Source: a virus
Length of the DNA stretch: 64,000 nucleotides
Virus record (IMG/VR): IMGVR_UViG_3300017613_000484
Strand: one strand, 5' to 3'
This document shows, piece after piece, positions 4,435 to 53,076 of the stretch. The number at the start of each line of letters is the position of its first letter. Within the stretch, counting starts at the first letter, position 1. The notes under the pieces were generated by a model, which saw only the letters and a program-made list of their open reading frames with translations, was not told where the DNA came from and ran no database searches. Both the position numbers and the translations under genes were made by a program.

Positions 4435-4821
4435 ATGTTGTCTCTTCACTTAGAATTGCACGGTGTTGACTGCCTTGATAATAACAAGGTGATGAGCAGA
4501 GTTTTCTATTTGATCGAGTCTCTTCACCTTCATGTTCGGAACTCTCTCCGGTGTGAATATTATCCCTATGGAATAACCTTCACCGCCCATCTCTCTGAAA
4601 GCCACATCACAGTTTCAACATGGCCTGAGAAGTCACTTGTTCAGCTTGATCTTTTTCTTTGTTGTGAAGATGGATTGAAGGTTGCTGGAAAAGCAATCAA
4701 ACTTTCCGCTGAAGTTTTTCATGCGGCTTGCTACAACTCAGCAATCTTGAACAGAGAGGGAATGACAGTGGCCTCCCTTGACAGAAAGGATGGTGATTCC
4801 AATGTGCAATCAAGGCAATAA
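4435..4821 (+). CDS. speD: S-adenosylmethionine decarboxylase proenzyme (pyruvoyl-dependent, SpeD/SpeH class)
   Basis: 128 aa. LSESHITVSTWPE (Glu-Ser self-cleavage site) and LDLFLCCED match the class-1 AdoMetDC core. Confidence 0.85.
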   Translation: MLSLHLELHGVDCLDNNKVMSRVFYLIESLHLHVRNSLRCEYYPYGITFTAHLSESHITVSTWPEKSLVQLDLFLCCEDGLKVAGKAIKLSAEVFHAACYNSAILNREGMTVASLDRKDGDSNVQSRQ

Positions 4822-7167: not shown

Positions 7168-7941
7168 TTGCTAATGATTGATTGATCTTGCCTTGATCCT
7201 TGCCCTGCCTTGCCTCTCCCGCCTTTCCATGATATGCCACACCCTGCCTTGCCATGATCCTTGCCTCACACCACCTTGCCAGTCCATTCCCCTCCTCACC
7301 GCACAGGGCCGTTCCCTGCCTCACCATTCCAAGGCCCACCATCCCAGGTTCCTTGCCTTTCCTAGCCATGCCGATCCTGGCCGCACCCGACACAACCGAA
7401 CCTTCCCGCCCATTCCGCACCGCACCGCACCTTTCCTTGATCCAAGCCACACCAAACCTCACCAGACCAGACAAGAACATTCCATGTCTCACCACACCCT
7501 TCCTTGTTCCTTGCCGTTCCACTCCTCACCTCTCCTCCCCTCTCAATTCCTCACCGCACCTTCCCACACTTCACCAAGCCATGATCCCTGCCTTACACCA
7601 CCTTGCCACTCCTTGCTTCTCCTCACCTTCCTTTCCATCCCAGACCTCATCCCACAAAGCCAAGATCCTTGCCATGCCATGCCGCACAAGACCATGCTGT
7701 TCCAGGCAACACAATTCCTTGCCCTGCCTCACCATGCCGTTCCCCTCCTTGTTCCTTGCCGTTCCAATCCTCACCTCCCCTTCCCGTTCCTAACACCACC
7801 AAGAACCATCCCATTCCCAACCGTGCCTCACCATGCCGCACCATTCCAAAAAAGCCCTCACCTTGATCCTTGCCGTGCCTTGCCATGCCGAACCGTGCCG
7901 AACAACACCACTCCGGTGCTTGCCAAACACCACCAAGATCC
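7168..7941. repeat. Non-coding C-rich/G-poor degenerate direct-repeat island
   Basis: 8 co-oriented TCCTTGCC, ~15 CTTGCC and ~13 CTCACC. Hand-aligned internal repeats: 7251-7300 vs 7578-7627 (43/50) and 7501-7535 vs 7746-7780 (33/35). A terminal 24-mer sits at 7191-7214 and 7861-7884. Confidence 0.85.
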
Positions 7942-12509: not shown

Positions 12510-12836
12510 CTATCTATTGTCACCAGAACCGGAGAGTGCATTTTTTATTTTTCGGTTCTGAAGTTTTTGGATGTTCACAGTGGCAACATCTTGAAGATCA
12601 ATTCCCAAATCAGAGGCAAGGTTTGCAAGATACCAAAGGACATCACCCATCTCCTTCATTATCTCAAAAACCTTTGAAGCGGTCAGTTCACCTTTGTCAT
12701 CTCTGATGAACTTCTTCACCTTCTCTGCCACTTCACCTGACTCACCACAAAGCCCAAGGGCCGGATAAACTATCTTGTATTCACTTGGATAGATGGCGGT
12801 TTGCCTTGCCAACTCTTGATATTTATTTATATTCAT
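12510..12836 (-). CDS. mazG: MazG-like nucleoside triphosphate pyrophosphohydrolase
   Basis: 108 aa with GLCGESGEVAEKVKK and EMGDVLWYLANLA, the EExxE/D metal motifs of all-alpha NTP-PPases. Confidence 0.85.
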   Translation of the reverse strand: MNINKYQELARQTAIYPSEYKIVYPALGLCGESGEVAEKVKKFIRDDKGELTASKVFEIMKEMGDVLWYLANLASDLGIDLQDVATVNIQKLQNRKIKNALSGSGDNR

Positions 12837-17776: not shown

Positions 17777-18692
17777 ATTTTTTCAGGAATGAAGCAAACT
17801 CCATTGACTGAAAAAGAATCCAAAACTTTTCTTTGGTCAACTCATCATCAATCAATTCCATATGATTCAATTTATATTCTTCAGTTTCCAGAGGCAGAGA
17901 AACCAACTGAAGATTTCTTTCAATGATCTTCTGGTTCTCTGGTTCGTTGAACTTCTTCAGCAAGTTCTCTGAAACCTCTGCCTTCATTGCCAGTTTTATT
18001 GCAGGCATCTTTTCTGATTTGCTCTTGGCCGGATCTGCAACTCCCCTGATCCCAGGCACCCCATCGGAGTTGCAACCGCCAATGGCTTTTGCAGTTGCCC
18101 ACACCTCTGGTTCTGCGCCATATTTTTTGATGAAGTTCTTCTTGGTCACAAGTCTTTTATATGTCCATTGGGAAACAGAATCATTCAAACATTGATAGAG
18201 GTCAGCATCACTGGACACAATGACAAACTCTCTGTCATTCCAATATTGGACAAGATAGGCAATCAGGTCATCTGCTTCAAAACCTTTTTGGCAGAAGATG
18301 TTCTTGAAGCCTAACAGGGGAAGGAATTTTCTCCTGATGAAATTGAATTGATTGAAGGCAACCATCAACTTGGCTGTGTCATCTGGATCTTTCTTTTCTC
18401 TCCGCTTCTTCTTGTAGTCAGGAAAGATTTCCTTCCGGTGATTTTCTTTTGAGTCCCAACAAAAAATGAATTGATTTGTCTTGAACTCTTTTGACAGGGA
18501 AAGCATCTGCCTTGCAAATCCAAAGATAACAAAAACCGGAACCTCTTGGACAGAGAGTTCCGGCAATGTGAAAAATGACCGATAGCAGAGGGAGTTGCTG
18601 TCAACTATCAAGGTTGGTTTGTCTGGATTGAATTTCAAATTTGTTTTCCTTTTTTCAGTTGGCATTCCTTTTGACTGCTTCTTGTAATTCAT
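17739..18692 (-). CDS. 5'-3' exonuclease / flap endonuclease (Pol I N-terminal, T5 D15 family)
   Basis: LIVDSNSLCYRSFF, FCWDS...R, GFEADDLIAYL, SSDADLYQC and the H3TH-like GVPGIRGVA. The start may be M10 (18665). Confidence 0.85.
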   Translation of the reverse strand: MNYKKQSKGMPTEKRKTNLKFNPDKPTLIVDSNSLCYRSFFTLPELSVQEVPVFVIFGFARQMLSLSKEFKTNQFIFCWDSKENHRKEIFPDYKKKRREKKDPDDTAKLMVAFNQFNFIRRKFLPLLGFKNIFCQKGFEADDLIAYLVQYWNDREFVIVSSDADLYQCLNDSVSQWTYKRLVTKKNFIKKYGAEPEVWATAKAIGGCNSDGVPGIRGVADPAKSKSEKMPAIKLAMKAEVSENLLKKFNEPENQKIIERNLQLVSLPLETEEYKLNHMELIDDELTKEKFWILFQSMEFASFLKKFEEWEDNFELGQ

Positions 18693-19431
18693 GACAGGAC
18701 TTCCAAGCCTCTTCCATGTTGGGACTCCGAATCTTCAGGGCATCATAAAATATTTTTTTATAGTTCCAGGTGGATTCAAATCTCTTCCACCAATTCAGGA
18801 ACTCCGCCCATTTGTTATCATGCCAAGTGGGACACCAAGCACCTGACCGGCAGACAAAGACCATGTTGAAGTCAGGAAGTTTTTCAGGAATTGAATAATA
18901 AATGTTGATGTCATATTCATAGAAATCAAATTCAACTTGATCGGCAATGATCTTGTGATCATCTCTTTTCCATTCAGGAAAAATGAGATTGTATTTGTCA
19001 AGCAATCGGTTTTCTATTGCCCTGAATGCCCAATTGGAACAATCAACCATGTTGTCAGGCAATCCTTCTCCATATCCCAAATCATGATGAGCATCGAAGT
19101 TCCAAAGCACAATATTTTCAGGAGGAGTGTCAGACAACAAAACTTCTATTGAGTTCAAACCTTCCAACAAAGTCCAAAGGCTTGAGTGGCTTTCAGAGAT
19201 TGCCAGCAATCCAGGTTCCTTCTCCTTGTTGATGACAGAATCCCAAAAGGTTTCGAAGCCTGCGGGAGTGTAGGATTCCAGGGCCAATTCTTTTGTGAAC
19301 AAGTTGATGTGGTTTGTCCTTGCAAACCAAATGTGGTTTATGAAGAAGCTGGCTTCCCTGTGTCCCCAATCATATCCAGAAGAATCAGGAAAGAAGAAAT
19401 CCCAATCCACTGACAGAACATTATAATCCAT
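18655..19431 (-). CDS. Hypothetical enzyme, possibly arginase/deacetylase-fold (UPF0489-like)
   Basis: 258 aa. The words NFDAHHDLGY, ESHSS and CSNW are recalled from that fold family. Needs an HMM check. Confidence 0.6.
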   Translation of the reverse strand: MDYNVLSVDWDFFFPDSSGYDWGHREASFFINHIWFARTNHINLFTKELALESYTPAGFETFWDSVINKEKEPGLLAISESHSSLWTLLEGLNSIEVLLSDTPPENIVLWNFDAHHDLGYGEGLPDNMVDCSNWAFRAIENRLLDKYNLIFPEWKRDDHKIIADQVEFDFYEYDINIYYSIPEKLPDFNMVFVCRSGAWCPTWHDNKWAEFLNWWKRFESTWNYKKIFYDALKIRSPNMEEAWKSCHELQEAVKRNAN

Positions 19432-26069: not shown

Positions 26070-27251
26070 CTATTCAGGAAATTCTTTTGAAGAGACTTGA
26101 ACCGATGGGAGCATATAAACAAAGACACCTTTGTCATTTGCTTCAGCATACATTCTGAAGACATCCTCCCAGGAAAGACCTTCAGCGGCTCCCAAGATCA
26201 ACCATCTGATTCCGGTCTTGGCAGAATAGAGTTTCTTCAGGTCAAGATATTTGTCCAGGCTTGAGGCAATCACAAAGTTGGTTCCGCCATTCAGCTTTTT
26301 GTTGACAAGGACTTTGCTGGATGTGGTCACTTGGGCGGGAGTGCTGACCTTGACTCCCAGGAAGATGTTGTCTCCGGTCTGGTTCCAATCAAACTCCTTC
26401 AGCCTTGCGGCTTGGGTTGTGCAAACCATGAAGAAGATGTCAGGGGTTTCATTCATGGCATTGATGACACTTTGAACAAAGGGCTTCTTGTTTGCCTTCT
26501 GCATCAAGTCACCTGTCAGAACAACAATTCTTTCTTCCATTGGTGAATCTGGTTTGGCAACTGCTTTCTTGAGAAGGGTCAGGGCGGCTTCATCTTCGGG
26601 AAGGATTGACCAGATCCAGTTGGCAAAATCAACACCCTTGCCAGCCTTCAGGAATTTGGATTTGGTCTTTGGGGTTTGCTTCTCTTTTTTCTTTATGTCC
26701 TTGTAGGATTGATCAACGGTCTTCTTCTTGGACTTGACTTCCTCTGCCTTGCCTTCTTTGACAACCTTCCTTGCACGGTTCACCTTTGAGACTGAGGTTC
26801 CCAAAGCCTTTGCGGTTTGTTTTGCTGAAGCCTCTTTCTTCTGACCAGCCTTCCGCTTGCCGCCAACGGAATCCACCTTCTCATTCTTTTCGATGTATTC
26901 AACAATTTCTTGTTCCGTGATGTTCCTTCGGTTCCGCTGATTGGCTATGGCATAGGCCAGGGCTTCTTCCTCTGTCTCAAATGTTTTGAAGACACAAGGA
27001 ACTGATTTCCTTTTGCCAACGGCTTCTGCCGCCATGAGCCTTGTGTGTCCATCAAGGCAGACATGCTTTTTCCTGTCTTTGTTTTTCCGCCAAAGGGCAA
27101 CCGGAAAGGCTTTGTCAAAGCCGTTCTTCTCCATGTCTTCTTGGATGGTGAAGAGGGTTTCATCTTCAATGTTGAACAGACCATCAAAAGGTTTCCTTCT
27201 CTCAATCTCATTGATTTCAACAAGACTGCTCCCGCCTGCTTTTGTTGCCAT
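26070..27251 (-). CDS. ParB/Srx-domain protein with Lys-rich linker and unknown C-terminal domain
   Basis: VCLDGHTRLMAA is the ParB N-terminal motif. 393 aa. Confidence 0.7.
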   Translation of the reverse strand: MATKAGGSSLVEINEIERRKPFDGLFNIEDETLFTIQEDMEKNGFDKAFPVALWRKNKDRKKHVCLDGHTRLMAAEAVGKRKSVPCVFKTFETEEEALAYAIANQRNRRNITEQEIVEYIEKNEKVDSVGGKRKAGQKKEASAKQTAKALGTSVSKVNRARKVVKEGKAEEVKSKKKTVDQSYKDIKKKEKQTPKTKSKFLKAGKGVDFANWIWSILPEDEAALTLLKKAVAKPDSPMEERIVVLTGDLMQKANKKPFVQSVINAMNETPDIFFMVCTTQAARLKEFDWNQTGDNIFLGVKVSTPAQVTTSSKVLVNKKLNGGTNFVIASSLDKYLDLKKLYSAKTGIRWLILGAAEGLSWEDVFRMYAEANDKGVFVYMLPSVQVSSKEFPE

Positions 27252-42676: not shown

Positions 42677-43211
42677 TGGATAATGAGAAAAACTTTTGAG
42701 AGGATTCTTTGTGGGCAATGTTAGTTGTTCTCGCTTTGAACAACTTTGACATTCCCTGGAAGGTGTCTGAACTTCTGGTTGTTAAAATCTGCGGTTCCCG
42801 ATCTGAAAGCACCGTTGTGATTTCAGCGTCCCTGCCTACCCAACCACCCTTGCTTTATTTCCGCCCCACCCGATCTGTTTGGCTGTCCTGCCTCTCTTGC
42901 TCCGTTGGTCGCTGACAGCCGCCCAACCCCCCACTCCCCATCTGATTGTCAAAGAACTTTTTGCTGTGTTGCCTGCCGTGCCTTCTAATGTTTACTTCTA
43001 TATATGTTATCGGATTTCTTGATGAAAATCTTTAGGATTCTGAGAAAAAAATCTAAAATATTCTAGTGAATATGGTTTTTTCTAGCCTAACCTGCTGAAA
43101 TATAAGGGGAAAAAATATTTTAATTTTTTTAGAATTTTTTCACTTTTTTCGGGAAAACACCCGCTGTTCATCGGGTGAGATTGGGATTCAGGGGAGGTTG
43201 CCAGGAAGCCG

Positions 43212-43239
43212 TTTTCAAAATTTGCGGCAAATTTTGAAA
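43212..43239. promoter_or_regulatory. Palindrome copy P3
   Basis: TTTTCAAAATTTGC-G-GCAAATTTTGAAA. Confidence 0.85.
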
Positions 43240-43266
43240 GGTGTTGAAGACCATGCAACAAAATCA

Positions 43267-43295
43267 TTTTCAAAATTTGCGGCAAATTTTGAAAA
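43267..43295. promoter_or_regulatory. Palindrome copy P4
   Basis: TTTTCAAAATTTGC-G-GCAAATTTTGAAAA. Its centre is 55 bp from the centre of P3. Confidence 0.85.
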
Positions 43296-43321
43296 ATAAA
43301 TTGGAGAGGAGAAAAGAAAAA

Positions 43322-43358
43322 TCCCCTGACCATCAATGACAGTCAAGGGATTTTTTTT
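43322..43358. terminator. Bidirectional intrinsic terminator after the HTH gene
   Basis: TCCCCTGAC (43322-43330) pairs with GTCAAGGGA (43342-43350) with one mismatch. T8 follows on the plus strand and TTTTTCTTTTC on the minus strand. Confidence 0.55.
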
Positions 43359-43379
43359 GTTGGGTGCGTTGAATGAAAA

Positions 43380-43649
43380 TCAGACTCTAATGATTTCCTG
43401 ACAGTTCACTTTGCTTTCAACTTCATCAAGGTTGGCAAGCATTGCACCTTTCGGAAATTTGATTGCTTTGATTTGTTCGGAGAGGAAAGCAAGATAGATG
43501 GTTTGCTTTGAAACTCCTGTGAGGAATCCAATCGTTTCGAATGACAACCAAGTCCCTTCAGGAATGTCTTCTCTCTTCTTGCAAAGGAGAGGCTTGACCT
43601 CTCTCTTCTTCTCTTTATAGTCTACATTGTGAAGGCCAGGGAACAACAT
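43380..43649 (-). CDS. Excisionase/MerR-type helix-turn-helix regulator (monocistronic)
   Basis: LSFETIGFLTGVSKQTIYLAFLSEQIKAIKFPKG. It has its own promoter and terminator. Confidence 0.65.
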   Translation of the reverse strand: MLFPGLHNVDYKEKKREVKPLLCKKREDIPEGTWLSFETIGFLTGVSKQTIYLAFLSEQIKAIKFPKGAMLANLDEVESKVNCQEIIRV

Positions 43650-43674
43650 ATTTTTCCTCCATGTTTATTTTTTC

Positions 43675-43703
43675 TTGACCTGGAAAAAGTATGCCGTTAT
43701 TAT
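43675..43703 (+). promoter_or_regulatory. Sigma70-type promoter of the rightward (packaging/structural) arm
   Basis: TTGACC (43675-43680), 17-nt spacer, TATTAT (43698-43703). About 180 nt upstream of ATG 43888. Confidence 0.55.
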
Positions 43704-43727
43704 ACAGAAATCAAAATGCTAATTCAA
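43699..43727 (-). promoter_or_regulatory. Divergent sigma70-type promoter of the HTH gene, -10 overlapping the rightward -10
   Basis: Minus strand reads TTGAAT (43727-43722), 17-nt spacer, TATAAT (43704-43699). Confidence 0.4.
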
Positions 43728-43887
43728 TTTAATTTTATATGGAAAGTGATTATGGAAATTTGCCAATCCTTCTTTCAAGAAGAAACCATCTTCAACCAAC
43801 TCCTTCCGTTCTTCATTTCAAAAACCACTCCTGAACAACATTGCTTTTCTTCTGATCACATTCACAGATCAATGAGGTTTTCTATTC

Positions 43888-44439
43888 ATGGAAAATAAAA
43901 TCATCAAAAGCCAGAAGGTCAATTGGAAGGAACTGAAACTCTTCCAACCGGCAGAGATGAAAAGGATGAGCAAAGCACAATTGAAAAAGCTGAAGCTGTC
44001 TCTTTCAAGGAATGGATTCCGTTCTCCTTTCTATGTCTGGGAAGATGAGAACGGTGAACTCTATTGCCTGGATGGTCATCACCGAATCCCCACATTGTTT
44101 TTGCTTGAGAAGGATGGTGAACCCATCCCTGAAAAACTCCCTGCCAACTTTGTCAGGTGCAAAGACATTCAGGAAGCCAAGAAGACAGTTCTCATTTTCA
44201 ATTCCCATTATGCAAAAATTCAAAAGGAATCCCTCCTTGATTGGGTTGAGGATCTTGATTTTGATGAGATGATGGAAGAGATTGATTTGCCCAACATCAA
44301 CTTTGATCTGTCACCAACCAAAGAGGAAACAATTCAACCAAACTTTCAGATCATTATAGACTTTCAGAACCAGCAGGATCTTGAACAAGCCTATGGCAAA
44401 CTGATTGAAGAGAAATATCAATGCAGGATCATTGTCTGA
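43888..44439 (+). CDS. ParB-like nuclease-domain protein
   Basis: FRSPFYVWEDENGELYCLDGHHRIP is the ParB N-terminal motif. 183 aa. Confidence 0.7.
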   Translation: MENKIIKSQKVNWKELKLFQPAEMKRMSKAQLKKLKLSLSRNGFRSPFYVWEDENGELYCLDGHHRIPTLFLLEKDGEPIPEKLPANFVRCKDIQEAKKTVLIFNSHYAKIQKESLLDWVEDLDFDEMMEEIDLPNINFDLSPTKEETIQPNFQIIIDFQNQQDLEQAYGKLIEEKYQCRIIV

Positions 44440-44771
44440 ATGGGTGATGCCCTGCTTTGATTCCCTCTTGAACTTCTTTGTGGCTCTGTCATCTATCCTG
44501 AACAGATCAATCCATCAAGCATTCTGATCAAGCAACCAGATCAAACCAAGCACATCACCGTTTGATTCCTTGGTGAGGCTTTTCCTGACAGAAAGGTTCT
44601 CACCTGTGGAAAACACATTGAAAGGTTTGTTGGCTGTTTGCATGAAGGGGATCACAGAGAATTTCACAGGTGTCAGCAGAGGATCAGGCTCATGGATTGT
44701 GAGGAGATTTTATTTCAGACATAACCAGATGAGCCAGATTCCGGCACCATATAAAAAAGGGCTGGTGAAGG

Positions 44772-45188
44772 ATGTCATCAAAAGGATTCAAGAAGATTCC
44801 AATTCAAGCTGTGCTGGTTGCCATAGATGGAACAATGGGAAGGCTGACCAACATTGCAACAAGGCTTGATTGTTCCGTTTGGCTGGTCAAAGAATACATC
44901 AACAAGGTTCCTGAAATCAGAGAGGCATATGAATTTGAATGCACAAGGGTTGGTGATTATGTAGAAGGCGCATTGATGGGCTTGATCAAGAAGGGCAACT
45001 GTGCGGCCACAATCTTCTATTGCAAAACCAAACTCAGGGAACGTGGCTATATTGAGAAGCATCAAGAGAAACCCACTGATGAAGATCAAGCAAGGAAGGC
45101 GGCTGAACTGCGGCGTTGGTATCGGGCCATTGAAGATTCCGTTCCCAAGCCGCCTGAAGAAGAGAATGGAAATGGGGAGGGAAGTTGA
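44772..45188 (+). CDS. Terminase small subunit (candidate)
   Basis: 138 aa with an N-terminal HTH-like region. ATGA-type overlap with the large terminase gene. Confidence 0.6.
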   Translation: MSSKGFKKIPIQAVLVAIDGTMGRLTNIATRLDCSVWLVKEYINKVPEIREAYEFECTRVGDYVEGALMGLIKKGNCAATIFYCKTKLRERGYIEKHQEKPTDEDQARKAAELRRWYRAIEDSVPKPPEEENGNGEGS

Positions 45189-46522
45189 GGATGCCCAAGT
45201 CAGACAGGGAGAGGAGATTCACCCTTCCCAAGTTGCGCCCACACAAGATTCAATATCGGTTGTTCACTGAAGACTTCCGCTTCAAGGTGACTCCTGCCGG
45301 AAGGCGGTCAGGCAAGACAGAGATTTCCAAGAGGAAGATCCTGAAGGAAGCCATCCGTGGGACAAGGCACAGTGTCAGCCGCTTCTTCTGTGCGGCTCCC
45401 ACAAGGGATCAGGCCAAGAGAATCTTTTGGGCGGATCTGAAAAGGAAACTGAGGAAGCCGTTTGTCAAAGATGTCTCTGATGGGAATCTGGTGATCACCC
45501 TGGACAACAACAATGAGATTCATGTCCTGGGGATGGACAAGCCTGAACGGATCGAAGGTCTTCCTTGGGATGGAGGTGTGTTGGACGAATACGGAAATAT
45601 GAAACAGGATGTGTGGCCGGAGCATGTCAGGCCAGCCCTGTCAGATCGAATGGGTTGGTGTTGGATGATTGGAGTTCCTGAAGGGCGCAATCATTATTAT
45701 GATCTATTCAGAGAAGCGGGAAAGAATGAACTGAGGGATTGGTCAACGTACACTTGGCCCTCTGCTGACATCCTGCCGCCTGAAGAGATTGAAGCCGCCC
45801 AACGTGATCTTGATCCCTTGACCTTTGATCAGGAATACAATGCTTCCTTTGTTACATTTGAAGGGCGGTGTTATTACTGTTTCACTGATCGGAACAAGAG
45901 GCGGAGTGATTATGATCCTGAAGCTGATCTATATATTTGCTTGGACTTCAATGTCAGCCCTGGCGTTGCCGCAATCATTCAAGAAGAAGCGGTGATGTCA
46001 ATGGGTGTTCCGGTCATTGGAGAATCAAAGACTCAGGTGATTGATGAAGTCTACATCAAAAGGAACTCCAACACCATGAAAGTCTGCCAGGAAATCATTG
46101 AGAAGTATGGCAGACACCAAGGGGATGTTCTGGTCTATGGGGATGCAACCGGTGGGGCAAAGGGAACCAGCAAGATTGTTGGATCTGATTGGGATCTGGT
46201 TGAAGAAATCCTCAGACCTGTTTTCGGCAGGAGAATATCTTTCGATGTCCCAAGGGCAAACCCAAGGGAGAGGAGCAGAGTCAATGCCGTGAACAGCAGG
46301 CTTTGCAATGTGAAGGGACAGCGGCGGTTGTTCGTTGATCCGGTCAAGGCTCCCAATGTTGTGCAAGACTTTGAAGGTGTCAGGTCAATGCCTGATGGTT
46401 CCATTGACAAGAGGAAAGATCCAATGCTGACTCACATCTCTGATGGCATTGGATATTATATTGCAAGAGAGTTTCCGGTCATTGATGTTCAGGAAGGAAT
46501 GATCAAGGTTGTTGGCCTATAG
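45185..46522 (+). CDS. Terminase large subunit
   Basis: TPAGRRSGKTE (Walker A), GVLDEYGN (Walker B), and a C-terminal nuclease region with LDFNVSP, GDATG and HISDG. Confidence 0.85.
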   Translation: MRMPKSDRERRFTLPKLRPHKIQYRLFTEDFRFKVTPAGRRSGKTEISKRKILKEAIRGTRHSVSRFFCAAPTRDQAKRIFWADLKRKLRKPFVKDVSDGNLVITLDNNNEIHVLGMDKPERIEGLPWDGGVLDEYGNMKQDVWPEHVRPALSDRMGWCWMIGVPEGRNHYYDLFREAGKNELRDWSTYTWPSADILPPEEIEAAQRDLDPLTFDQEYNASFVTFEGRCYYCFTDRNKRRSDYDPEADLYICLDFNVSPGVAAIIQEEAVMSMGVPVIGESKTQVIDEVYIKRNSNTMKVCQEIIEKYGRHQGDVLVYGDATGGAKGTSKIVGSDWDLVEEILRPVFGRRISFDVPRANPRERSRVNAVNSRLCNVKGQRRLFVDPVKAPNVVQDFEGVRSMPDGSIDKRKDPMLTHISDGIGYYIAREFPVIDVQEGMIKVVGL

Positions 46523-46538
46523 ATAAAAGGAGAGAGTC

Positions 46539-46958
46539 ATGTTGGCAAAACTTTTGGAACTATTGACAACAAAGACCAGCAAGAGTGTTGGCATTGGGAT
46601 CATCTGTCTGGTTGCTGGCGTTGCTGTCTTCTACTATTCCAATCAATACTTTGTTTCCAGGTCAGCCCACAGCCAGGAGGTCAAGGCCATCAAGGTCAAC
46701 TGTTCAACCAACAAGAAGGAACTGAAGAAGGAAATCAAAGTGGGTGATGCCAGCCAGCAGATCAACACCTTGTATCTTCAGAAGGGCATGGCAGAGAAAC
46801 AGGTGTGGGATATTGATGCAAGGATTGAAGACCTTGAGAAGAACGGTGCTGGCCCAGAGCAGAAGGCCAAGTGGAAGAGAAGGCTTGAACGAACAGAGGA
46901 AGAAGTCAAAGAGATAGATGGAAAGATTGAGACAGAGAAAAAGAAACTCACCGAATGA
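46539..46958 (+). CDS. Membrane-anchored coiled-coil protein
   Basis: N-terminal TM helix (VGIGIICLVAGVAVFYY), then a charged helical region. Confidence 0.55.
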   Translation: MLAKLLELLTTKTSKSVGIGIICLVAGVAVFYYSNQYFVSRSAHSQEVKAIKVNCSTNKKELKKEIKVGDASQQINTLYLQKGMAEKQVWDIDARIEDLEKNGAGPEQKAKWKRRLERTEEEVKEIDGKIETEKKKLTE

Positions 46959-46971
46959 AAGGAGACAGATC

Positions 46972-47262
46972 ATGTTGAAGGAAATGTTTGGAGAGGGAGG
47001 TCAAGTCAGCATGATGAGGGCAATGATGTTTGCTGTGACTGCCAACATCATGGCGGTGTGGACTGCCATCTCAATTCAGGATGGTGCCTTTGCAGACATG
47101 CCGCCTGAGATGATTGCAATCATGGCAACCTTTGTGACAGGCAAGGTTGTTCAGAAGTTTCCTGAAGCCAAAGGCAACGGCAACATCATCATTGAGAGGG
47201 TTGAGAAGCCAACTCCAACTGGAACCGGACAGCCGCCCATTGTTCCGCTGTCTGATATGTAG
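46972..47262 (+). CDS. Small membrane protein
   Basis: 96 aa from ATG 46972 (AAAGGAGA RBS), with two hydrophobic helices. Confidence 0.55.
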   Translation: MLKEMFGEGGQVSMMRAMMFAVTANIMAVWTAISIQDGAFADMPPEMIAIMATFVTGKVVQKFPEAKGNGNIIIERVEKPTPTGTGQPPIVPLSDM

Positions 47263-47276
47263 AGAGGAGAAGCCCA

Positions 47277-47393
47277 ATGGCAAAGGCAGTCAAGGGAGTT
47301 CCCAAAAGGGATGGCTCCGGCAAGGGCAAGAGAATGAACAGAGGCAGAGGCGGTTGCAAGAAGACACAACCCAGAGGCAAAGGCAGGAAATGA
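47277..47393 (+). CDS. 38-aa highly basic Gly/Lys/Arg peptide (DUF5320-like by recollection)
   Basis: MAKAVKGVPKRDGSGKGKRMNRGRGGCKKTQPRGKGRK read by hand. GAGAGGAGAAG RBS. Confidence 0.45.
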   Translation: MAKAVKGVPKRDGSGKGKRMNRGRGGCKKTQPRGKGRK

Positions 47394-47394
47394 A

Positions 47395-47469
47395 ATGTGG
47401 ACAACCACACTTGTCTTGCTTGGCCTGATTGCTCTGGTTCTAATCTATCAAATCTATAAAGGGAACTGA
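47395..47469 (+). CDS. 24-aa hydrophobic peptide
   Basis: MWTTTLVLLGLIALVLIYQIYKGN. It fits exactly between the neighbouring genes. Confidence 0.3.
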   Translation: MWTTTLVLLGLIALVLIYQIYKGN

Positions 47470-47471
47470 CC

Positions 47472-48305
47472 ATGCTGGATCAAACAATCATCAAAGGCAG
47501 ATCAATCAATGACACTTGGTTCAAAGCAATGAAGGCAACAATGGAGTTGGGTGTTGATTACCGAATAGACAAGGGAGAATATGAAGGCCAGTTCAGAAGG
47601 GAACTTGACCTTGCGGTCATCACCCTTTCAGATCCAGGCCAAAGACCTCTTGCCTGCCAGATGCAAAACATCCTGCCAACCACTGATGCCAAGATCCACA
47701 AATATTTTCAGAATTATATTCTTGATCCTGACTTCACTGGTGATGGTGATCAAGCCTTCCTTGAATATTCACTCAATGAATATAAATATTCAACATGGAT
47801 TGGCCCAAGCTGGCAACATTGCTGTGACCTTCTGCTTCAAGGTGAAGGCGGGTGCAACCAAGCAACCATCTCAATCGGATCGGCAATGAAGCCTGATCAG
47901 AGCCGGAACTTTTATGATGTGACAAGGGTGACTGACCTGAACACCATGAACACAAGGAGAGGGCCGGTTGTCTTCACTGGTGAGGTGATGCAGTTTGAGA
48001 AGCCGCCCTGCTTGCGGTTGGTTGACATGCGGATCAGGGAGGGAACCCTTCACTTCATAATCTATTTCCGTTCATGGGATTTGGTTGGTGGATTCCCTGA
48101 GAACATTGGCGGTCTTCAACTGCTGAAAGAGTTCTGCCTTGAGTATATGAATCTGAAGGGAAGAGAATATGAAGATGGATCAATCATTGCAGTCAGCAAA
48201 GGCTTGCACATCTATGATCACTATTGGGACACCATCAACAACTATGTTGGGAATGAAGAGGTTGCCAAGGTTGAAATGAATGACTTCGGAATCTGGACAG
48301 TCTGA
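47472..48305 (+). CDS. Thymidylate-synthase-fold enzyme (ThyA / pyrimidine hydroxymethylase family, divergent)
   Basis: KPPCLRLVDMRIREGTLHFIIYFRSWDLVGGFPENIGG matches the catalytic-Cys strand and the RS(x)D...G.P.N core of the ThyA family. Confidence 0.75.
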   Translation: MLDQTIIKGRSINDTWFKAMKATMELGVDYRIDKGEYEGQFRRELDLAVITLSDPGQRPLACQMQNILPTTDAKIHKYFQNYILDPDFTGDGDQAFLEYSLNEYKYSTWIGPSWQHCCDLLLQGEGGCNQATISIGSAMKPDQSRNFYDVTRVTDLNTMNTRRGPVVFTGEVMQFEKPPCLRLVDMRIREGTLHFIIYFRSWDLVGGFPENIGGLQLLKEFCLEYMNLKGREYEDGSIIAVSKGLHIYDHYWDTINNYVGNEEVAKVEMNDFGIWTV

Positions 48306-48461
48306 CAATGGGAAGCCCAGGATCTTCATGCAGGGTCAATGGCGGTTTGGCTTCACCCTTTATATTTCTGAACGTCATTCTCTTGAACGGTTCATGAGTG
48401 GTGAGGTTGCGTTGCCTGCTGACATGAAGGTTCCTGATCAACCGGAATCATTAGATGCTTT

Positions 48462-48677
48462 ATGGGAAGAACAATCATGGAAGATCAAAACTGTGAGAAG
48501 TGCAAAAGACTTTTGAAGATCATTGAGAACTTGGTTGGTGGTGGGCCGATGGACAAAGTTGAATTGGAGAAGATGGAAATCCTTCTCAGGTCATCTGAAG
48601 CACCATTGAGAGACAGAACCCATGCCATTGATGCTGTGCATGTTTTGCTTGAGGAGCAAGGACAATATGAGCAATGA
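48462..48677 (+). CDS. Hypothetical small protein
   Basis: 71-aa ORF. The start may be ATG 48477. Confidence 0.4.
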   Translation: MGRTIMEDQNCEKCKRLLKIIENLVGGGPMDKVELEKMEILLRSSEAPLRDRTHAIDAVHVLLEEQGQYEQ

Positions 48678-49278
48678 GAGAGAGGGTGACAAGAAGGATC
48701 AAGGCAAGTTGAGGTTCAACCTTTTTCCTGTCAGGGCATTGAGAGAACTGGTGAAGAATTACACACAAGGAGCAGAGGTCAACGGTGATCGGAATTGGGA
48801 GAAGGGCTTTGAGTTCACCCGTTGCTTTGATGCCATTCAACGCCATGCCTGGGATTGGCTTGATGGTGAAGACTATGACATCACAGGGCCAAACCCTTCC
48901 GGCATTCACCACATGGCCTGTGTTGCTTTCTGGTCATTGGCTCTGGTTGAGTTCCACTTCACCCATCCTGAGTTGGATGACAGGGCAAAGGTGACAGTTG
49001 AAGATATGTTTGCCGGAATGGATCGGGTGATTGAACACCAGAAGACAATGGAGAAGCTGAACAGGCTGAAGAAGATTGTGCCTGATGTTGAAGATGACTA
49101 TCCAACTGTGGTTGATGAGCCTGAAGAAGATTGCTGTTCATTGAACCTGGAAGACTTTGAGGAAGAAACCAAAGATGTCCTTCCGATCAGTGAAGAGTGT
49201 TCCACCTGTTCACCCGTTGAAGTCATTGAGGAAGAATCCAATGTTGGAGTCAGAGAAAGTGAAACTGCTGATGCCTAG
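48667..49278 (+). CDS. dNTP pyrophosphohydrolase-like protein (DUF5664 / dATP-dGTP diphosphohydrolase N-domain-like) with acidic tail
   Basis: GKLRFNLFPVRALRELVKNYTQGAEVNGDRNWEKG...AIQRHAWDWLDGEDYD...HHMACVAFWSLALVEF, recalled from that family. Confidence 0.6.
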   Translation: MSNEREGDKKDQGKLRFNLFPVRALRELVKNYTQGAEVNGDRNWEKGFEFTRCFDAIQRHAWDWLDGEDYDITGPNPSGIHHMACVAFWSLALVEFHFTHPELDDRAKVTVEDMFAGMDRVIEHQKTMEKLNRLKKIVPDVEDDYPTVVDEPEEDCCSLNLEDFEEETKDVLPISEECSTCSPVEVIEEESNVGVRESETADA

Positions 49279-49323
49279 CAGAAAGAAATATTTCACATTT
49301 TATTTTGATAAGGAGTCAGGCAA

Positions 49324-51048
49324 ATGGCAACCGTAAAAAGCACGGACAGTTTGTTGGAAGGTGTTGACAGCACCCACACAGAATATTCCCTCTATGAAAA
49401 TGATTGGCAATTGATTTCTGACATCAAGGAAGGGGAGAGGCAAGTCAAGAGTCAAGGCACACTATACTTGCCGAAACTCCAAGGCCAGGATGACAAAGAA
49501 TATAAAGCCTATCTTCAGAGGGGTGTCTTCTACAACGCCACAGCCAGAACAGTCAGTGGCTTGACCGGTGCCATCATGCGGAAGCCTGCTGTCATTGAAG
49601 CACCGAACAAGATTGAAGGCTTCTTTGATTCCATCACTCCCGATGGTTACAACATACAGGAGACAATCAAGTCCACAGCGGAAAGCCTTCTGACCTATGG
49701 GCGGCATGGGATCTTGGTTGACTTCAATGATCTTCAAGAAGTCTATTACACTGAATACACAGCCCAAGAAATTCTCAACTGGCGAACAGAGTTGATTGAT
49801 GGCAAGAAGGTGTTGACCTTCCTGACACTCTCTGAGATTGATGAACGGCAAGATCCTGATGATGAGTTCAACACAAACTATTATGAACAGATTCGGGTTC
49901 TGAAGCTGGACTCTGAAACTGGATACTTGGTTGTGAATCTTTTTGAACGGCAAGTGGCTGACACCACAGCGGCAGACAACAACAAGAAAGTTTCTGAAGG
50001 CGGCTGGACTCAAGTGGCTGTGTCAGGAGAAAACAAAGATCATTATCCAACCAAGATGGGCGGAGAGAAGTTGGACTATATTCCTTTTGTTTTCTTCGGT
50101 GCGGTCAGGAACACCGCTGACATCAACAAGGCTCCTCTGCTTGATCTGTCATATGTGAACATTGGTCATTGGAAAGTGACCTGTGATTATTATCATGGCC
50201 TTCACTTCTGCGCCTTGCCCACTCCCTATGCTTTAGGGATTCGAAGCAAAGAGAACTTCAACATTGGCCCTTCCGTTGCCATTGTCAGTGAGAACGAACA
50301 GGCAAAGGTTGGGATGCTTGAGTTCACTGGTCAAGGGCTGTCTGCTGTTCGGGATGCCCTGAAGGATCTTGAAAGCAAGATGGCTGTCCTGGGTGCAAGG
50401 CTTTTGGAAGAACAGAAAAGGGCGGCAGAGGCGGCAGAGACATTGGTGATCCGATCTGCCGGAGACTCCGCCACACTCTCTTCCATCTCAGGCAATCTTG
50501 ACAGAGGTTTTGAAGAGGCCATCCTCTACACAATGTTGTGGTTCAATCTTCCTGAGACAGAGGCATCAAACATTTCTGTGAAGTGCAACAAAGATTTTGT
50601 TGCCGCCCAACTTGCTTCTTCTGAAATCACCGCCCTGCTGAAAGCCCTGCAAACAGGGAACATCTCTCAGAGAACTTTCCTCTACCAGATGAAGCAAGGT
50701 GAAATCCTTCCTGACAACTGGACAATTGATGATGAGATGGAAGAGATTGAGGTGGAAAGCTACACTCCTTTTCTCACCTCCCGAACAGGAGAGGAAGACC
50801 TTGATGATGATTCCACTGTGGAAGATGTTGTGATCATTAAGGACAAAGAGAAGGAAGAGGAAGAAGAGGATCTGACTCTGAAGAAGAAGGATGAAGATGA
50901 TGATGAAATAAAGCCTGATGATGATGAAGAGATGAAGAAGAAAAAGAAGGCACGGCAGGATCAGAAGGAAAAAGAAGAGAAGGAAAAGAAAACCAAGAAG
51001 CCCAAGAAAGATAGGGGCAAGGGAACTCCTCCGAAGGGAAGGAAATAA
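49324..51048 (+). CDS. Portal protein (candidate), with a long charged C-terminal tail
   Basis: 574 aa, positioned between terminase and head-morphogenesis genes. The N-terminal YLPKL...YKAYLQRGVFYNATARTVSGLTGAIMRKP is recalled from portal families. Confidence 0.7.
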   Translation: MATVKSTDSLLEGVDSTHTEYSLYENDWQLISDIKEGERQVKSQGTLYLPKLQGQDDKEYKAYLQRGVFYNATARTVSGLTGAIMRKPAVIEAPNKIEGFFDSITPDGYNIQETIKSTAESLLTYGRHGILVDFNDLQEVYYTEYTAQEILNWRTELIDGKKVLTFLTLSEIDERQDPDDEFNTNYYEQIRVLKLDSETGYLVVNLFERQVADTTAADNNKKVSEGGWTQVAVSGENKDHYPTKMGGEKLDYIPFVFFGAVRNTADINKAPLLDLSYVNIGHWKVTCDYYHGLHFCALPTPYALGIRSKENFNIGPSVAIVSENEQAKVGMLEFTGQGLSAVRDALKDLESKMAVLGARLLEEQKRAAEAAETLVIRSAGDSATLSSISGNLDRGFEEAILYTMLWFNLPETEASNISVKCNKDFVAAQLASSEITALLKALQTGNISQRTFLYQMKQGEILPDNWTIDDEMEEIEVESYTPFLTSRTGEEDLDDDSTVEDVVIIKDKEKEEEEEDLTLKKKDEDDDEIKPDDDEEMKKKKKARQDQKEKEEKEKKTKKPKKDRGKGTPPKGRK

Positions 51049-51063
51049 AAGGAGGAGAGTCAA

Positions 51064-52197
51064 ATGGCTAATGACAAAATAAAAGATGATCTGCTGACTG
51101 CCAGCATCCAGTTGGAAAAGTTTGCCGCAGGCATTGACAAGAAGGCGGAGACAGTTCTGAAGGGAACCCAGGATCACATCATCAATGAACTGGTGAAGAT
51201 GGACTTTGAAGATCCCAACTCTTCCGCCTTCAAGAAGAACAGATTGGGCGGTCTATATTCCCGCATTGACAAGATCCTGAACAAGGAATATGAAAAGATG
51301 GGTGAGGTTCTTGAAGCGGAGTTGAGTCAGATCCCTGGCCTTTCTCAAGACATGGTTGCCAACATCATGAATGATGCAATGGGTGTTGATGTCATGACCA
51401 TCGGCTTGAGTGAGGAGCAACTGAAATCCATTGTGAAGAATGGAACCGTTGATGGCGGTGTCCTGGGTGATTGGATGGCAACCCAGGCTGACAATCTTTC
51501 CAAGGCAATCAGGGCGCAGATTGCAGATGTTGTGGCGGAAGCCAGCATTGGGATTCTGGCAGGAGAAACAACCGCAGAGATGGTGAAGAGAATCAGAGGC
51601 ACCACAACCATTCCTGGCCTGATGAACAAATCCAAGAAGGATCTTTATTCATTTGTTAGAACCTACACAGCCCAGGTTGCCCATGATGCAAGAATGGCAA
51701 TGTATGAAAAGTATGACTACCTTTTGAACGGATATGAAATTGTGGCTGTGCTTGATCAAAGAACCACTCCGCTTTGCAGGGGATATGATGGTTTGCAATA
51801 TACGTTGAAATACAAACCCATTCCGCCCAACCGGAAGAAATATCCCAGAGCCGGTGGCCCACCATTCCACTTCAATTGCAGAACGGTGCTTGTTCCTATC
51901 ACAAAAACCTTTGAAGAACTATCGGAAGGAGGAAACCTGACAAAGCAACAACGGAAAGACTTTGACAAACTCACCAATGCGGAGAGGGCCGCATTAGGTG
52001 GGCCGATTGAGCAAACCAAGAATTATGATCAGTGGCTCCGCAAGCAATCGAAGGCAAGACAGATCCAAGTTCTTGGGCCAAAGAGATGGGAAATCTGGAA
52101 GAAGAGAGGCTTGACGATGGCGCAAATGTTGGATCAAAGAGGGAACACTTTGACCATTGAACAACTCAAGAGAAAGTATCCAAGAAAAGTGAAGTAG
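51064..52197 (+). CDS. Head morphogenesis protein (Mu gpF / SPP1 gp7 family)
   Basis: VLDQRTTPLCRGYDG...PPFHFNCR is the signature of that family. Confidence 0.8.
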   Translation: MANDKIKDDLLTASIQLEKFAAGIDKKAETVLKGTQDHIINELVKMDFEDPNSSAFKKNRLGGLYSRIDKILNKEYEKMGEVLEAELSQIPGLSQDMVANIMNDAMGVDVMTIGLSEEQLKSIVKNGTVDGGVLGDWMATQADNLSKAIRAQIADVVAEASIGILAGETTAEMVKRIRGTTTIPGLMNKSKKDLYSFVRTYTAQVAHDARMAMYEKYDYLLNGYEIVAVLDQRTTPLCRGYDGLQYTLKYKPIPPNRKKYPRAGGPPFHFNCRTVLVPITKTFEELSEGGNLTKQQRKDFDKLTNAERAALGGPIEQTKNYDQWLRKQSKARQIQVLGPKRWEIWKKRGLTMAQMLDQRGNTLTIEQLKRKYPRKVK

Positions 52198-52236
52198 CAG
52201 AATTTTGTCTTTATCTACATTTTATTTTTTTTTGTC

Positions 52237-52265
52237 TTTACACACATTTCAAATCTTGGTAAATT
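52237..52265 (+). promoter_or_regulatory. Candidate promoter upstream of scaffold/capsid genes
   Basis: TTTACA, 17-nt spacer ending in TGG (extended -10), then TAAATT. Confidence 0.4.
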
Positions 52266-52290
52266 AGGTTTCTAAAAAGGAGGTTTTAGA

Positions 52291-53076
52291 ATGGCATTAA
52301 AATTCAAAATTCAATCATTAGAAGAAGTTGCCGCAGAACAGCAAGGTCTTTATGAACCCGCCAAAGATGGAGAAGGCTTCACACTCATGATTGATGGCCT
52401 TCCAACGGACACAATCCCCAAAGAAAAACTTGATGAGTTCCGAACCAACAACATAAAACTGTTCCGTGAAAAAGAAGCCCTGGAAAAGAAGCTGGAAGCC
52501 TTCAGGGATGTTGATCCTGAAGAATATGCCAAGCTGAAAGATATGGCTGATAAAATCGACACCTCCAAATTGCTTGATGAAGGAAAGGTTGATGAGGTTG
52601 TTTCTCAGAAGACAGAACGGATGAGAACAGACTTCATGAACCAGATCAAAGCCCTGTCCGAAAAGATCAAAGAAGCTGAACAGAATGAAGTGAAACTGAA
52701 GAGTGATCTTGGAATCACCAAGATCAACAACGCCATCCAAACCGAAGTGACAAAGGCTTGGAAAATCAAGCCCAACGCCATGAAGCTGATCATCCAAGAA
52801 GGAAAGCAAATCTTCCAACTGGATGACAACAATGAGCCGGTGGCTGTTGACAAAAGTGGCGGAACGATGGTTGGCAAGGATGGCATGACTCCCCTGTCAA
52901 TTCAGGAATGGGTTGAGAATCTCCCTAATGATTTTCCGTTTCTGTTTGAAGAAGGGGAAGGGATCGGATCGAAGAAGGGCGGTCGAAAAGGAGGAAGCAC
53001 AGAACTCCAACGGATCAAGCAAGTGAAAGATCCACAGGAGAGGTTGAGGCTTGCACGGAAAGCGGGTCTTGCCTAA
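52291..53076 (+). CDS. Scaffolding protein (candidate)
   Basis: 261 aa, charged and helical. Lies immediately upstream of the capsid gene, with an AAAGGAGG RBS. Confidence 0.65.
   Translation: MALKFKIQSLEEVAAEQQGLYEPAKDGEGFTLMIDGLPTDTIPKEKLDEFRTNNIKLFREKEALEKKLEAFRDVDPEEYAKLKDMADKIDTSKLLDEGKVDEVVSQKTERMRTDFMNQIKALSEKIKEAEQNEVKLKSDLGITKINNAIQTEVTKAWKIKPNAMKLIIQEGKQIFQLDDNNEPVAVDKSGGTMVGKDGMTPLSIQEWVENLPNDFPFLFEEGEGIGSKKGGRKGGSTELQRIKQVKDPQERLRLARKAGLA

Follow-up and report, generated by a model that had tools for sequence, protein, structure and literature searches.

A divergent thymidylate synthase-like gene and a DUF5664 gene between the terminase and portal genes of a phage without close cultured relatives

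The systems closest to the locus described here are thymidylate synthases, pyrimidine hydroxymethylases and a family of phage enzymes that act on deoxynucleoside triphosphates (dNTPs). In homologues of the thymidylate synthase ThyA, the residue at the position of Leu143 of the Escherichia coli enzyme has been correlated with the product, and the position of Asn177 selects the base, Asn selecting uracil and Asp being carried by the enzymes that act on deoxycytidine monophosphate (dCMP) (PMC13326640). The biochemistry of archaeal ThyA proteins has barely been explored in the literature. Arthrobacter phage Wayne encodes a stand-alone DUF5664 protein that turns dATP, dUTP and dGTP into the corresponding monophosphates (dNMPs), and dTTP is not among the reported substrates of this assayed enzyme; the same dNTP-to-dNMP activity is known for the DUF550 fusion of phage SH-Ab 15497, and DUF5664 occurs in phages with canonical genomes too (PMC12884076, 2026). 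A 2025 preprint also describes a subfamily of phage PolA polymerases fused to an active uracil-DNA glycosylase (UDG) (10.1101/2025.03.26.645540). Here we analyse a 64,000-nucleotide stretch of viral DNA (IMG/VR record IMGVR_UViG_3300017613_000484), referred to below as the window, in which a ThyA-like gene and a DUF5664 gene form an islet (positions 47,277 to 49,278) between the genes of the large terminase subunit and the portal protein.

A first-pass annotation, made from the letters of the window, had proposed that the two genes might belong to a modified-base pathway. We report the identities of both genes, which agree with that proposal, the fold and the conserved catalytic residues of the ThyA-like protein, and the distribution and neighbourhoods of its family. 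The second half of the proposal, the replacement or hypermodification of a base in the virion DNA, is unsupported here. We give about an even chance to another reading, in which the islet is an auxiliary cassette that leads from dUTP through deoxyuridine monophosphate (dUMP) to thymidine monophosphate (dTMP) and helps to exclude uracil. The finding is of more interest for drawing attention to a large clade of ThyA homologues than as a feature of one phage. The two genes of the islet, and two further genes of the window on which this reading draws, are as follows.

47472..48305, + strand: ThyA-like protein of 277 amino acids (aa), from Pfam, PHROG, NCBIfam, motifs and AlphaFold/Foldseek
48667..49278, + strand: DUF5664/PF18909 protein of 203 aa, probable dNTP pyrophosphohydrolase
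12510..12836, - strand: MazG-type nucleoside triphosphate (NTP) pyrophosphohydrolase (Pfam MazG, E 2.7e-11), the second nucleotide-sanitising enzyme of the genome
22276..25110, - strand: 944-aa fusion of UDG, 3'-5' exonuclease and family A DNA polymerase (Pfam UDG, E 9.5e-30; DNA_pol_A_exo1; DNA_pol_A, E 1.6e-49)

The ThyA-like protein and its clade

Judged by its sequence and predicted structure, the product of 47472-48305 is a pyrimidine C5 one-carbon transferase of the ThyA superfamily, from a divergent clade related to the archaeal-type thymidylate synthase. It scores 28.0 bits with the Pfam family Thymidylat_synt (PF00303), a small margin above the gathering cutoff of 24.3, and the alignment covers only residues 172-265, in the C-terminal half. 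It also matches PHROG 160, thymidylate synthase, with an E-value of 9e-11. The match to the NCBIfam model TIGR03283 is full-length and reaches 68.8 bits, under the cutoff of 174.55; nine other members of the clade score between 54 and 106 bits and stay under it as well. The AlphaFold model (predicted local distance difference test, pLDDT, 86.5) has the ThyA alpha/beta fold and was matched by Foldseek to ThyA-fold structures with E-values of 1e-9 to 1e-10. The search of the PDB returned 396 matches at E<=0.001, and the best 50 of these 396 are all ThyA-fold enzymes, comprising thymidylate synthases and their pyrimidine-modifying homologues. Behind the highest-scoring entry, which is taken up below, come classical thymidylate synthases, MilA and the T4 dCMP hydroxymethylase, with similar E-values. 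Among the top matches in viral predicted structures, none exceeds 17% identity. The first-pass annotation had called a divergent ThyA-fold protein from its motifs, and profile searches and model agree with that call.

The protein was aligned with four reference enzymes: E. coli ThyA, a T4-like gp42, the dUMP hydroxymethyltransferase of PaMx11 (gp51) and MONT_51 of phage Montesquieu. Residues were then counted in 81 viral members of the clade and in ten cellular members that were inspected. Cys180 corresponds to C146 of E. coli ThyA, Arg200-Ser-Trp-Asp203 to R166-D169, Gly207 to G173, Asn211 to N177, His246 to H207 and Tyr248 to Y209, and one Tyr aligns with Y94. Both motifs picked out beforehand are present: PPCLRLVD (residues 178-185) aligns with the catalytic Cys, and FRSWDLVGGFPEN (residues 199-211) with the RSxD...N motif of solved thymidylate synthases. 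The protein harbors the Pro-Cys, Arg-Ser-x-Asp and His...Tyr motifs of the superfamily together with a base-selecting residue. Leu181 is found instead of H147 and Trp202 instead of C168, no counterpart aligns with the Glu58 helix of E. coli ThyA, and Arg182, which follows the catalytic Cys, is Arg in 79 of the 81 viral members. The active-site residues are alike in viral and cellular members, including those flanked by glycosyltransferase genes, which argues for one chemistry across the clade. Two enzyme types were ruled out by the same alignment. A dCMP-specific enzyme, such as a dCMP hydroxymethylase of the T4 gp42 type, is incompatible with Asn211 (not Asp) and Lys177, and a 5-hydroxy-dCMP synthase with the retention of Asp203 and Asn211, as the diagnostic D169N with N177D is absent.

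In a library clustered at 50% identity, 278 representatives belong to the clade at E<=1e-30. Genomes of at least 597 GTDB species of bacteria and archaea carry a member; most of these species are anaerobes, among them Dehalococcoidia, Syntrophomonadaceae, Desulfobacterota, Actinomycetota, Saccharibacteria, Nanoarchaeota and one Methanosarcinales archaeon. Members also lie on at least 224 viral contigs of IMG/VR. A single query of the Chloroflexota type retrieved 6,924 protein clusters, and many among the matches listed are named 'thymidylate synthase' by their source pipelines. Identity of the window protein is 45-56% to members of a purely viral or metagenomic subclade and no higher than 37% to cellular members. 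In sequence comparisons the clade is a large group of its own, separate from the known dCMP and dUMP hydroxymethylases and sister to TIGR03283. It is the sub-cutoff scores with TIGR03283 that point to such a sister group, whose members come mainly from anaerobic bacteria and phages. Placement by HMM, one of the two ways of checking that the first-pass annotation had recommended, put the protein in this separate clade (the nearest curated family being TIGR03283) and not among the hydroxymethylases.

The cellular genes of the clade sit in housekeeping, core-genome positions. Among 150 flanking open reading frames (ORFs) are CysRS (8), SpoU methylase (7), RlmN (5), GyrB (4) and thymidylate kinase (4), and dihydrofolate reductase is not among the 25 commonest neighbour families listed. 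In the viral loci, thymidylate kinase and NDK are each found twice as neighbours and dCMP deaminase in three loci; ribonucleotide reductase and replication genes also lie near the clade member. In five loci of the subclade that contains the window protein, the replication module around the clade member also includes DUF4406 and DUF6899 genes. Many members of the clade are 550-680 aa long, with the ThyA match split in two (among them P0103, P0107, P0114, P0116, P0125 and P0130), which suggests that inteins or other inserts lie close to the active site. In a related phage contig (L087, 6847-9432 and 18805-20756), intein domains are present in the helicase and in the ribonucleotide reductase.

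The DUF5664 protein, the islet and the rest of the window

The product of 48667-49278 had been likened to the N-domain of dATP/dGTP diphosphohydrolases, and it does match PF18909 (dGTP_diPhyd_N) over residues 5-106, with an E-value of 8e-22 and 77.5 bits against a cutoff of 27; the activity of a stand-alone homologue is known (PMC12884076). It also matches PHROG 11257/801. The conserved core of the family is intact (Arg16, Asp41-Arg-Asn-Trp-Glu45, Gly47, His60 and Asp104). Behind the PF18909 domain, the protein ends in an acidic tail of about 100 residues that is absent from the homologues, which are mostly stand-alone proteins of 110-190 aa. The predicted model is an all-alpha bundle. No PDB relative was found by sequence, and no solved structure resembles the model significantly; DCTPP1 and MazG come up only with E-values of ~4, for which reason no kinship of fold with these all-alpha NTP pyrophosphatases is claimed. 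The DUF5664 domain is present in 533 cultured phage records, mainly from Arthrobacter, Mycobacterium and Propionibacterium/Cutibacterium phages, and is thus not a marker of base replacement. Those actinobacterial phages are known as phages with ordinary DNA.

The ORF list and the Pfam and PHROG matches bear out the gene positions of the first-pass annotation, the location of the islet between terminase and portal, and the flanking mini-ORFs, among them a 38-aa Gly/Lys/Arg peptide. The other features of this interval, all on the + strand, are listed below with its two boundaries.

45185..46522, + strand: terminase large subunit (Pfam Terminase_6N and PHROG 2, E 5e-34), upstream boundary of the islet
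46539..46958, + strand: 139-aa protein with an N-terminal membrane helix and a coiled coil, from its translation and ribosome-binding site
46972..47262, + strand: 96-aa hydrophobic protein, probably membrane; the likely start is ATG 46972 within ORF 46918-47262
47277..47393, + strand: 38-aa Lys/Arg/Gly-rich peptide, an ORF with a strong GAGGAG ribosome-binding site
47395..47469, + strand: putative 24-aa hydrophobic mini-ORF (MWTTTLVLLGLIALVLIYQIYKGN), read straight from the sequence
48280..48516, + strand: putative 78-aa ORF that overlaps the end of the ThyA-like gene, start uncertain, no Pfam or PHROG family match
48462..48677, + strand: 71-aa ORF with a better ribosome-binding site before the in-frame ATG 48477, no Pfam or PHROG family match
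49324..51048, + strand: portal protein (PHROG 145, E 4e-120; Pfam DUF4055), downstream boundary of the islet

The terminase-to-portal interval is a chain of tightly packed or overlapping + strand ORFs. The 139-aa protein is preceded by a strong AAGGAGAG ribosome-binding site and gives just weak coiled-coil matches in Pfam. An AAGGAGA site lies 7 nt 5' of ATG 46972, and the DUF5664 gene is also preceded by a good ribosome-binding site. The 24-aa mini-ORF stops 2 nt short of the start codon of the ThyA-like gene. Neither the 96-aa hydrophobic protein nor the 38-aa peptide matches a Pfam or PHROG family. The portal C-terminus (~50820-51045) comprises a long acidic segment and then a Lys/Arg/Gly tail that is similar in composition to the 38-aa peptide, and a ParB-like nuclease-domain protein is encoded at 43888-44439, a short way upstream of the small terminase region. 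In 43000-52500, matches that resemble promoters or terminators do not exceed their frequency in shuffled sequence. On its + strand the islet holds a single one, a weak terminator-like site, and the two best + strand promoter-like sites are located upstream of the islet, at ~43.6 kb, in a divergent region. In Xanthomonas phage Xp15, a distant relative by its portal (~32% identity), terminase and portal abut directly; the 2.8-kb stretch between them in the window thus behaves as an insert. A megablast of 10 kb against cultured phages found nothing, and single-protein scans of IMG/VR with the portal and with the ThyA-like protein revealed no close relative. Sequence of this phage, which is without a close cultured relative, was found only in assembled contigs of marine sediment and seawater metagenomes.

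Partner genes were sought in 40 window ORFs, including every ORF of at least 300 aa in the replication arm, with Pfam, and in two sets of ten with PHROGs. The MazG protein, the UDG-polymerase fusion and an S-adenosylmethionine (AdoMet) decarboxylase, all named by the first-pass annotation, were recovered by Pfam; an 'arginase-fold-like' protein that it had placed at 18655-19431 has no Pfam or PHROG match, and no other polyamine enzyme was confirmed.

4435-4821, + strand: AdoMet decarboxylase (SpeD-type; Pfam, E 2.3e-13), among tail-region genes

The scan further identified RecA, a gp32-like protein (weak match), a DnaB-type helicase and primase, a DEAD-box helicase, a 5'-3' exonuclease (FEN-type), a Mre11/Rad50-like pair and a RuvC-like nuclease. 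It revealed no ribonucleotide reductase, dCMP deaminase, dUTPase, dNMP kinase or recognisable dTTPase, no glycosyltransferase, PurZ, 5-HMUDK or aGPT-Pplase, and no adenylosuccinate-synthetase-like, HD/YfbR, DUF550 or NDT-like match. A phmmer search of all window ORFs with the hypermodification and glycosyltransferase proteins of Montesquieu, PaMx11 and the viral loci of the clade also found nothing, and neither 5-HMUDK nor aGPT-Pplase was detected in any of 83 viral loci (phmmer/jackhmmer with the Montesquieu and PaMx11 proteins). 5-HMUDK, aGPT-Pplase and PurZ are thus missing from the scanned ORFs and from these loci alike. A Z-genome (2-aminoadenine) system is ruled out by the lack of PurZ, DatZ and DUF550 among the 40 ORFs. 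A polyamine-linked modification of thymine, built on the AdoMet decarboxylase and the 'arginase', is unsupported, as aGPT-Pplase and 5-HMUDK were not found and the 'arginase' is without a family match.

Two other regions of the window were noted. ORF 26070-27251, in the replication arm, encodes a ParB-like nuclease domain fused to a DUF5131-like domain. The ~770 nt at 7170-7940, between two minus-strand genes, have a GC content of 0.54 and a GC skew of -0.49, the strongest in the window, and are made up of degenerate direct repeats of short period (CCTTGCC, CCATGCC, CCTCACC), whose copies are frequently spaced by 10 nt. This segment contains no convincing ORF and may represent an origin or iteron array or else an array for protein binding.

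Readings of the islet

We infer the substrate, cofactor and product of the ThyA-like enzyme, and its coupling to the DUF5664 protein, as follows. The cassette, inserted between terminase and portal, would be translated with them in one tightly packed gene chain. The DUF5664 protein, perhaps together with MazG, would lower dUTP by converting it to dUMP and pyrophosphate, as its characterised homologue does. The ThyA-like enzyme would bind dUMP, in keeping with the uracil-type Asn211; Cys180 would attack C6, and a one-carbon unit from a methylene-pterin cofactor would be transferred to C5, most likely yielding dTMP. The polymerase-linked UDG would clear residual uracil. Together with MazG and the UDG-polymerase fusion, the islet would thus raise the supply of dTTP and keep uracil out of the phage DNA. 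We favour this reading because Asn211 is of the uracil type, because TIGR03283 is the closest curated family and because the cellular relatives sit in housekeeping contexts. Thymidylate kinase, NDK and dCMP deaminase neighbours, the dUTP activity of the DUF5664 homologue and the UDG-PolA fusion argue for it too, as does the lack of any partner for hypermodification or for T/A exclusion among the window ORFs tested.

Several observations weigh against a dTMP-supplying cassette. Asn129-Gln130 occupy the position of the Arg126/Arg127 phosphate clamp, which is kept as Arg-Arg in all four reference enzymes. This exchange, from which we call the group the 'NQ' clade, is nearly invariant among its viral members (Asn in 80 of 81, Gln in 77 of 81). 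The C-terminal lid is absent, the final ~40 residues of E. coli ThyA being without a counterpart in the protein. At the position of L143, the methylating reference enzyme has Leu and the three reference hydroxymethylases have Asp; the window protein has Lys177 there, its nearest relatives have His, Gln, Lys or Tyr, and 62 of the 81 viral and all ten cellular members have Asp. The protein thus shows neither the bulky hydrophobic residue nor the lid of a methylating synthase, a rule whose reach to archaeal-type enzymes is uncertain. The diagnostic residues give no clean answer between a methyl and a hydroxymethyl product in this clade, so that inspecting them, as the first-pass annotation had advised, pointed to a uracil-type base selection and did not separate the products. 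The top target TM-score in the structure search (0.75) belongs to the flavin-dependent dCMP hydroxylase of phage HY126 (9iqu/9iqc). The clade gene lies between two glycosyltransferase family 4 (GT4) genes in three viral loci (L123, L134 and L172) and downstream of one in a fourth (L115), and the five loci of the window's subclade mentioned above have a GT9-like gene of ~575 aa a few kb away in their replication module. In the DUF5664 protein, Val38-Asn39 replace a Lys-Tyr pair found in at least 90% of homologues. Only three of the 83 viral loci have a DUF5664 gene at a distance of up to 8 kb from the ThyA-like gene; in one of them (L111) it is directly adjacent and upstream. Coupling of the two enzymes is therefore not conserved, and the idea of a conserved pair was dropped. 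Literature searches turned up no biochemical assay of any clade member. Finally, the window is 64 kb of an 80.8-kb contig, of which ~17 kb lies outside it.

Part of this evidence would suit an enzyme that makes 5-hydroxymethyl-dUMP (hmdUMP) or another C5 derivative, with 5-hydroxymethyluracil (hmU) or a modified T in the DNA and the two pyrophosphatases biasing the nucleotide pools as in SPO1-type or hypermodifying phages. We think this unlikely, though it deserves a serious hearing. The L143 position is not Leu and is Asp in most of the clade, as in gp42, PaMx11 gp51 and MONT_51, and the lid is missing; however, this Asp is gone from the window protein and from its nearest subclade, which carry Lys, His, Gln or Tyr, and the same active site is found in housekeeping genes of hundreds of cellular species that are not expected to make hmdUMP. 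The GT4-flanked loci suggest a glycosyl acceptor on the pyrimidine. L172 continues with a methyltransferase, a GT9 gene and another glycosyltransferase, beside a PD-(D/E)XK nuclease (L172:6630-14274), and clusters of this kind may be DNA glycosylation clusters built on the ThyA clade. GT9-like genes likewise stand in the replication modules of the closest viral relatives, whereas the window ORFs tested hold no glycosyltransferase, 5-HMUDK, aGPT-Pplase, dNMP kinase or recognisable dTTPase. Of cultured-phage proteins, only MONT_51 of Glutamicibacter phage Montesquieu (L088:6013-7563) gives a full-length match to the window protein (24% identity). This 516-aa 'thymidylate synthase/pyrimidine hydroxymethylase' has a long extra C-terminal region of ~250 residues; it adjoins an aGPT-Pplase clade 1 gene and lies ~3.5 kb upstream of an aGPT-Pplase clade 2 gene, and is thereby part of a thymidine hypermodification cluster. 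Against this stand the 83 viral loci, none with 5-HMUDK or aGPT-Pplase, and the assayed DUF5664 enzyme, which acts on dATP, dUTP and dGTP and for which dTTP is unreported as a substrate. A hydroxymethyl product stays alive because of the atypical active site and the glycosyltransferase-flanked relatives, and nothing else in the genome speaks for it. Its far-reaching version is somewhat less probable still: the 'NQ' clade would be a distinct enzyme type, its viral members would make hmdUMP or an oxygenated C5-dUMP, and thymine in this phage would be replaced by hmU or a derivative, with DUF5664 and MazG shaping the dNTP pool.

It is improbable that the clade uses a different substrate or cofactor (a nucleoside, a di- or triphosphate, a flavin or a non-folate pterin) to give a product that is neither dTMP nor hmdUMP. 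The change of the clamp arginines to Asn-Gln, the new, near-invariant Arg182, and Trp202 and Leu181 in place of Cys168 and His147 could be taken this way. So could the flavin-dependent dCMP hydroxylase at the top of the TM-scores, and the unexpected hydroxylations known for ThyA homologues in a superfamily whose archaeal biochemistry is little explored. Yet Asp203, Gly207, Asn211, His246 and Tyr248 align with positions that contact pterin, uracil and deoxyribose, the D169N exchange diagnostic of 5-hydroxy-dCMP synthases is absent, and thymidylate kinase neighbours in four cellular and two viral loci fit dTMP. Least probable is that the two genes are unrelated passengers in an insertion hot spot, with a DUF5664 enzyme that may be weakened or re-purposed. 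The rare co-occurrence in the viral loci, the 533 phage records of the domain, Val38-Asn39 for a near-invariant Lys-Tyr, the long acidic tail and the two small unrelated ORFs between the genes are set against the retention of the invariant Arg16, Asp41-Arg-Asn-Trp-Glu45, His60 and Asp104, the DUF5664 gene immediately upstream in L111, and the natural metabolic link from dUTP through dUMP to dTMP.

If the supply of dTMP is the true role, the islet is one more phage nucleotide-supply cassette, set apart by its place between terminase and portal and by DUF5664 where a dUTPase would be expected. The clade is very widespread and is called 'thymidylate synthase' by annotation pipelines, yet it is without features thought essential for ThyA chemistry. 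What it catalyses bears on how many anaerobes make dTMP, and on whether a new DNA modification pathway lies behind the viral members found in glycosyltransferase clusters.

Comparison with known systems

The methanogen-type synthase TIGR03283 is the top-scoring curated family, window residues 6-254 aligning with positions 2-200 of the 201 in the model. Both are short forms of about 200-280 aa without the bacterial C-terminal lid. The difference lies in the score, 68.8 bits against the cutoff of 174.55, with cellular clade members reaching 79-106 bits. With E. coli ThyA (PF00303) the window protein shares the fold, the Pro-Cys cysteine, Arg166-Ser167-x-Asp169, Gly173, Asn177, His207, Tyr209 and the Tyr aligned with Tyr94. 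It differs in having Asn/Gln for R126/R127, Lys for L143, Leu for H147 and Trp for C168.

The fold and the motifs of covalent catalysis are also those of T4-type gp42, PaMx11 gp51 and Montesquieu MONT_51, and the clade mostly has their Asp at the L143 position. The window protein resembles the dUMP hydroxymethyltransferases in its base-selecting Asn211, with Lys at L143 where most of the clade has Asp. Unlike all three hydroxymethylases, the clade is without the Arg-Arg clamp, and the window protein has Lys instead of Asp. The known dUMP enzymes adjoin hypermodification genes, aGPT-Pplase in Montesquieu and gp46/gp47 in PaMx11, whereas the window and the 83 loci are without such neighbours. 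The flavin-dependent 5-hydroxy-dCMP synthases (RB69 gp48, DLP3 gp80 and HY126 AfhB) are compact ThyA folds of similar size. Ranked by target TM-score, no solved structures come closer than 9iqu and 9iqc (0.75 and 0.72), at 12-15% identity, and neither D169N nor N177D of these synthases is found in the window protein.

The DUF5664 protein differs from its homologues in Val-Asn for Lys38-Tyr39 and in the acidic tail of ~100 residues, which they do not share. In Acinetobacter phage SH-Ab 15497, DUF5664 is the N-terminal domain of a DUF550 fusion, and the window copy is without DUF550. Like the protein of phage Wayne, it is a stand-alone PF18909 protein, and it is 40-45% identical to the homologues of Arthrobacter phages.

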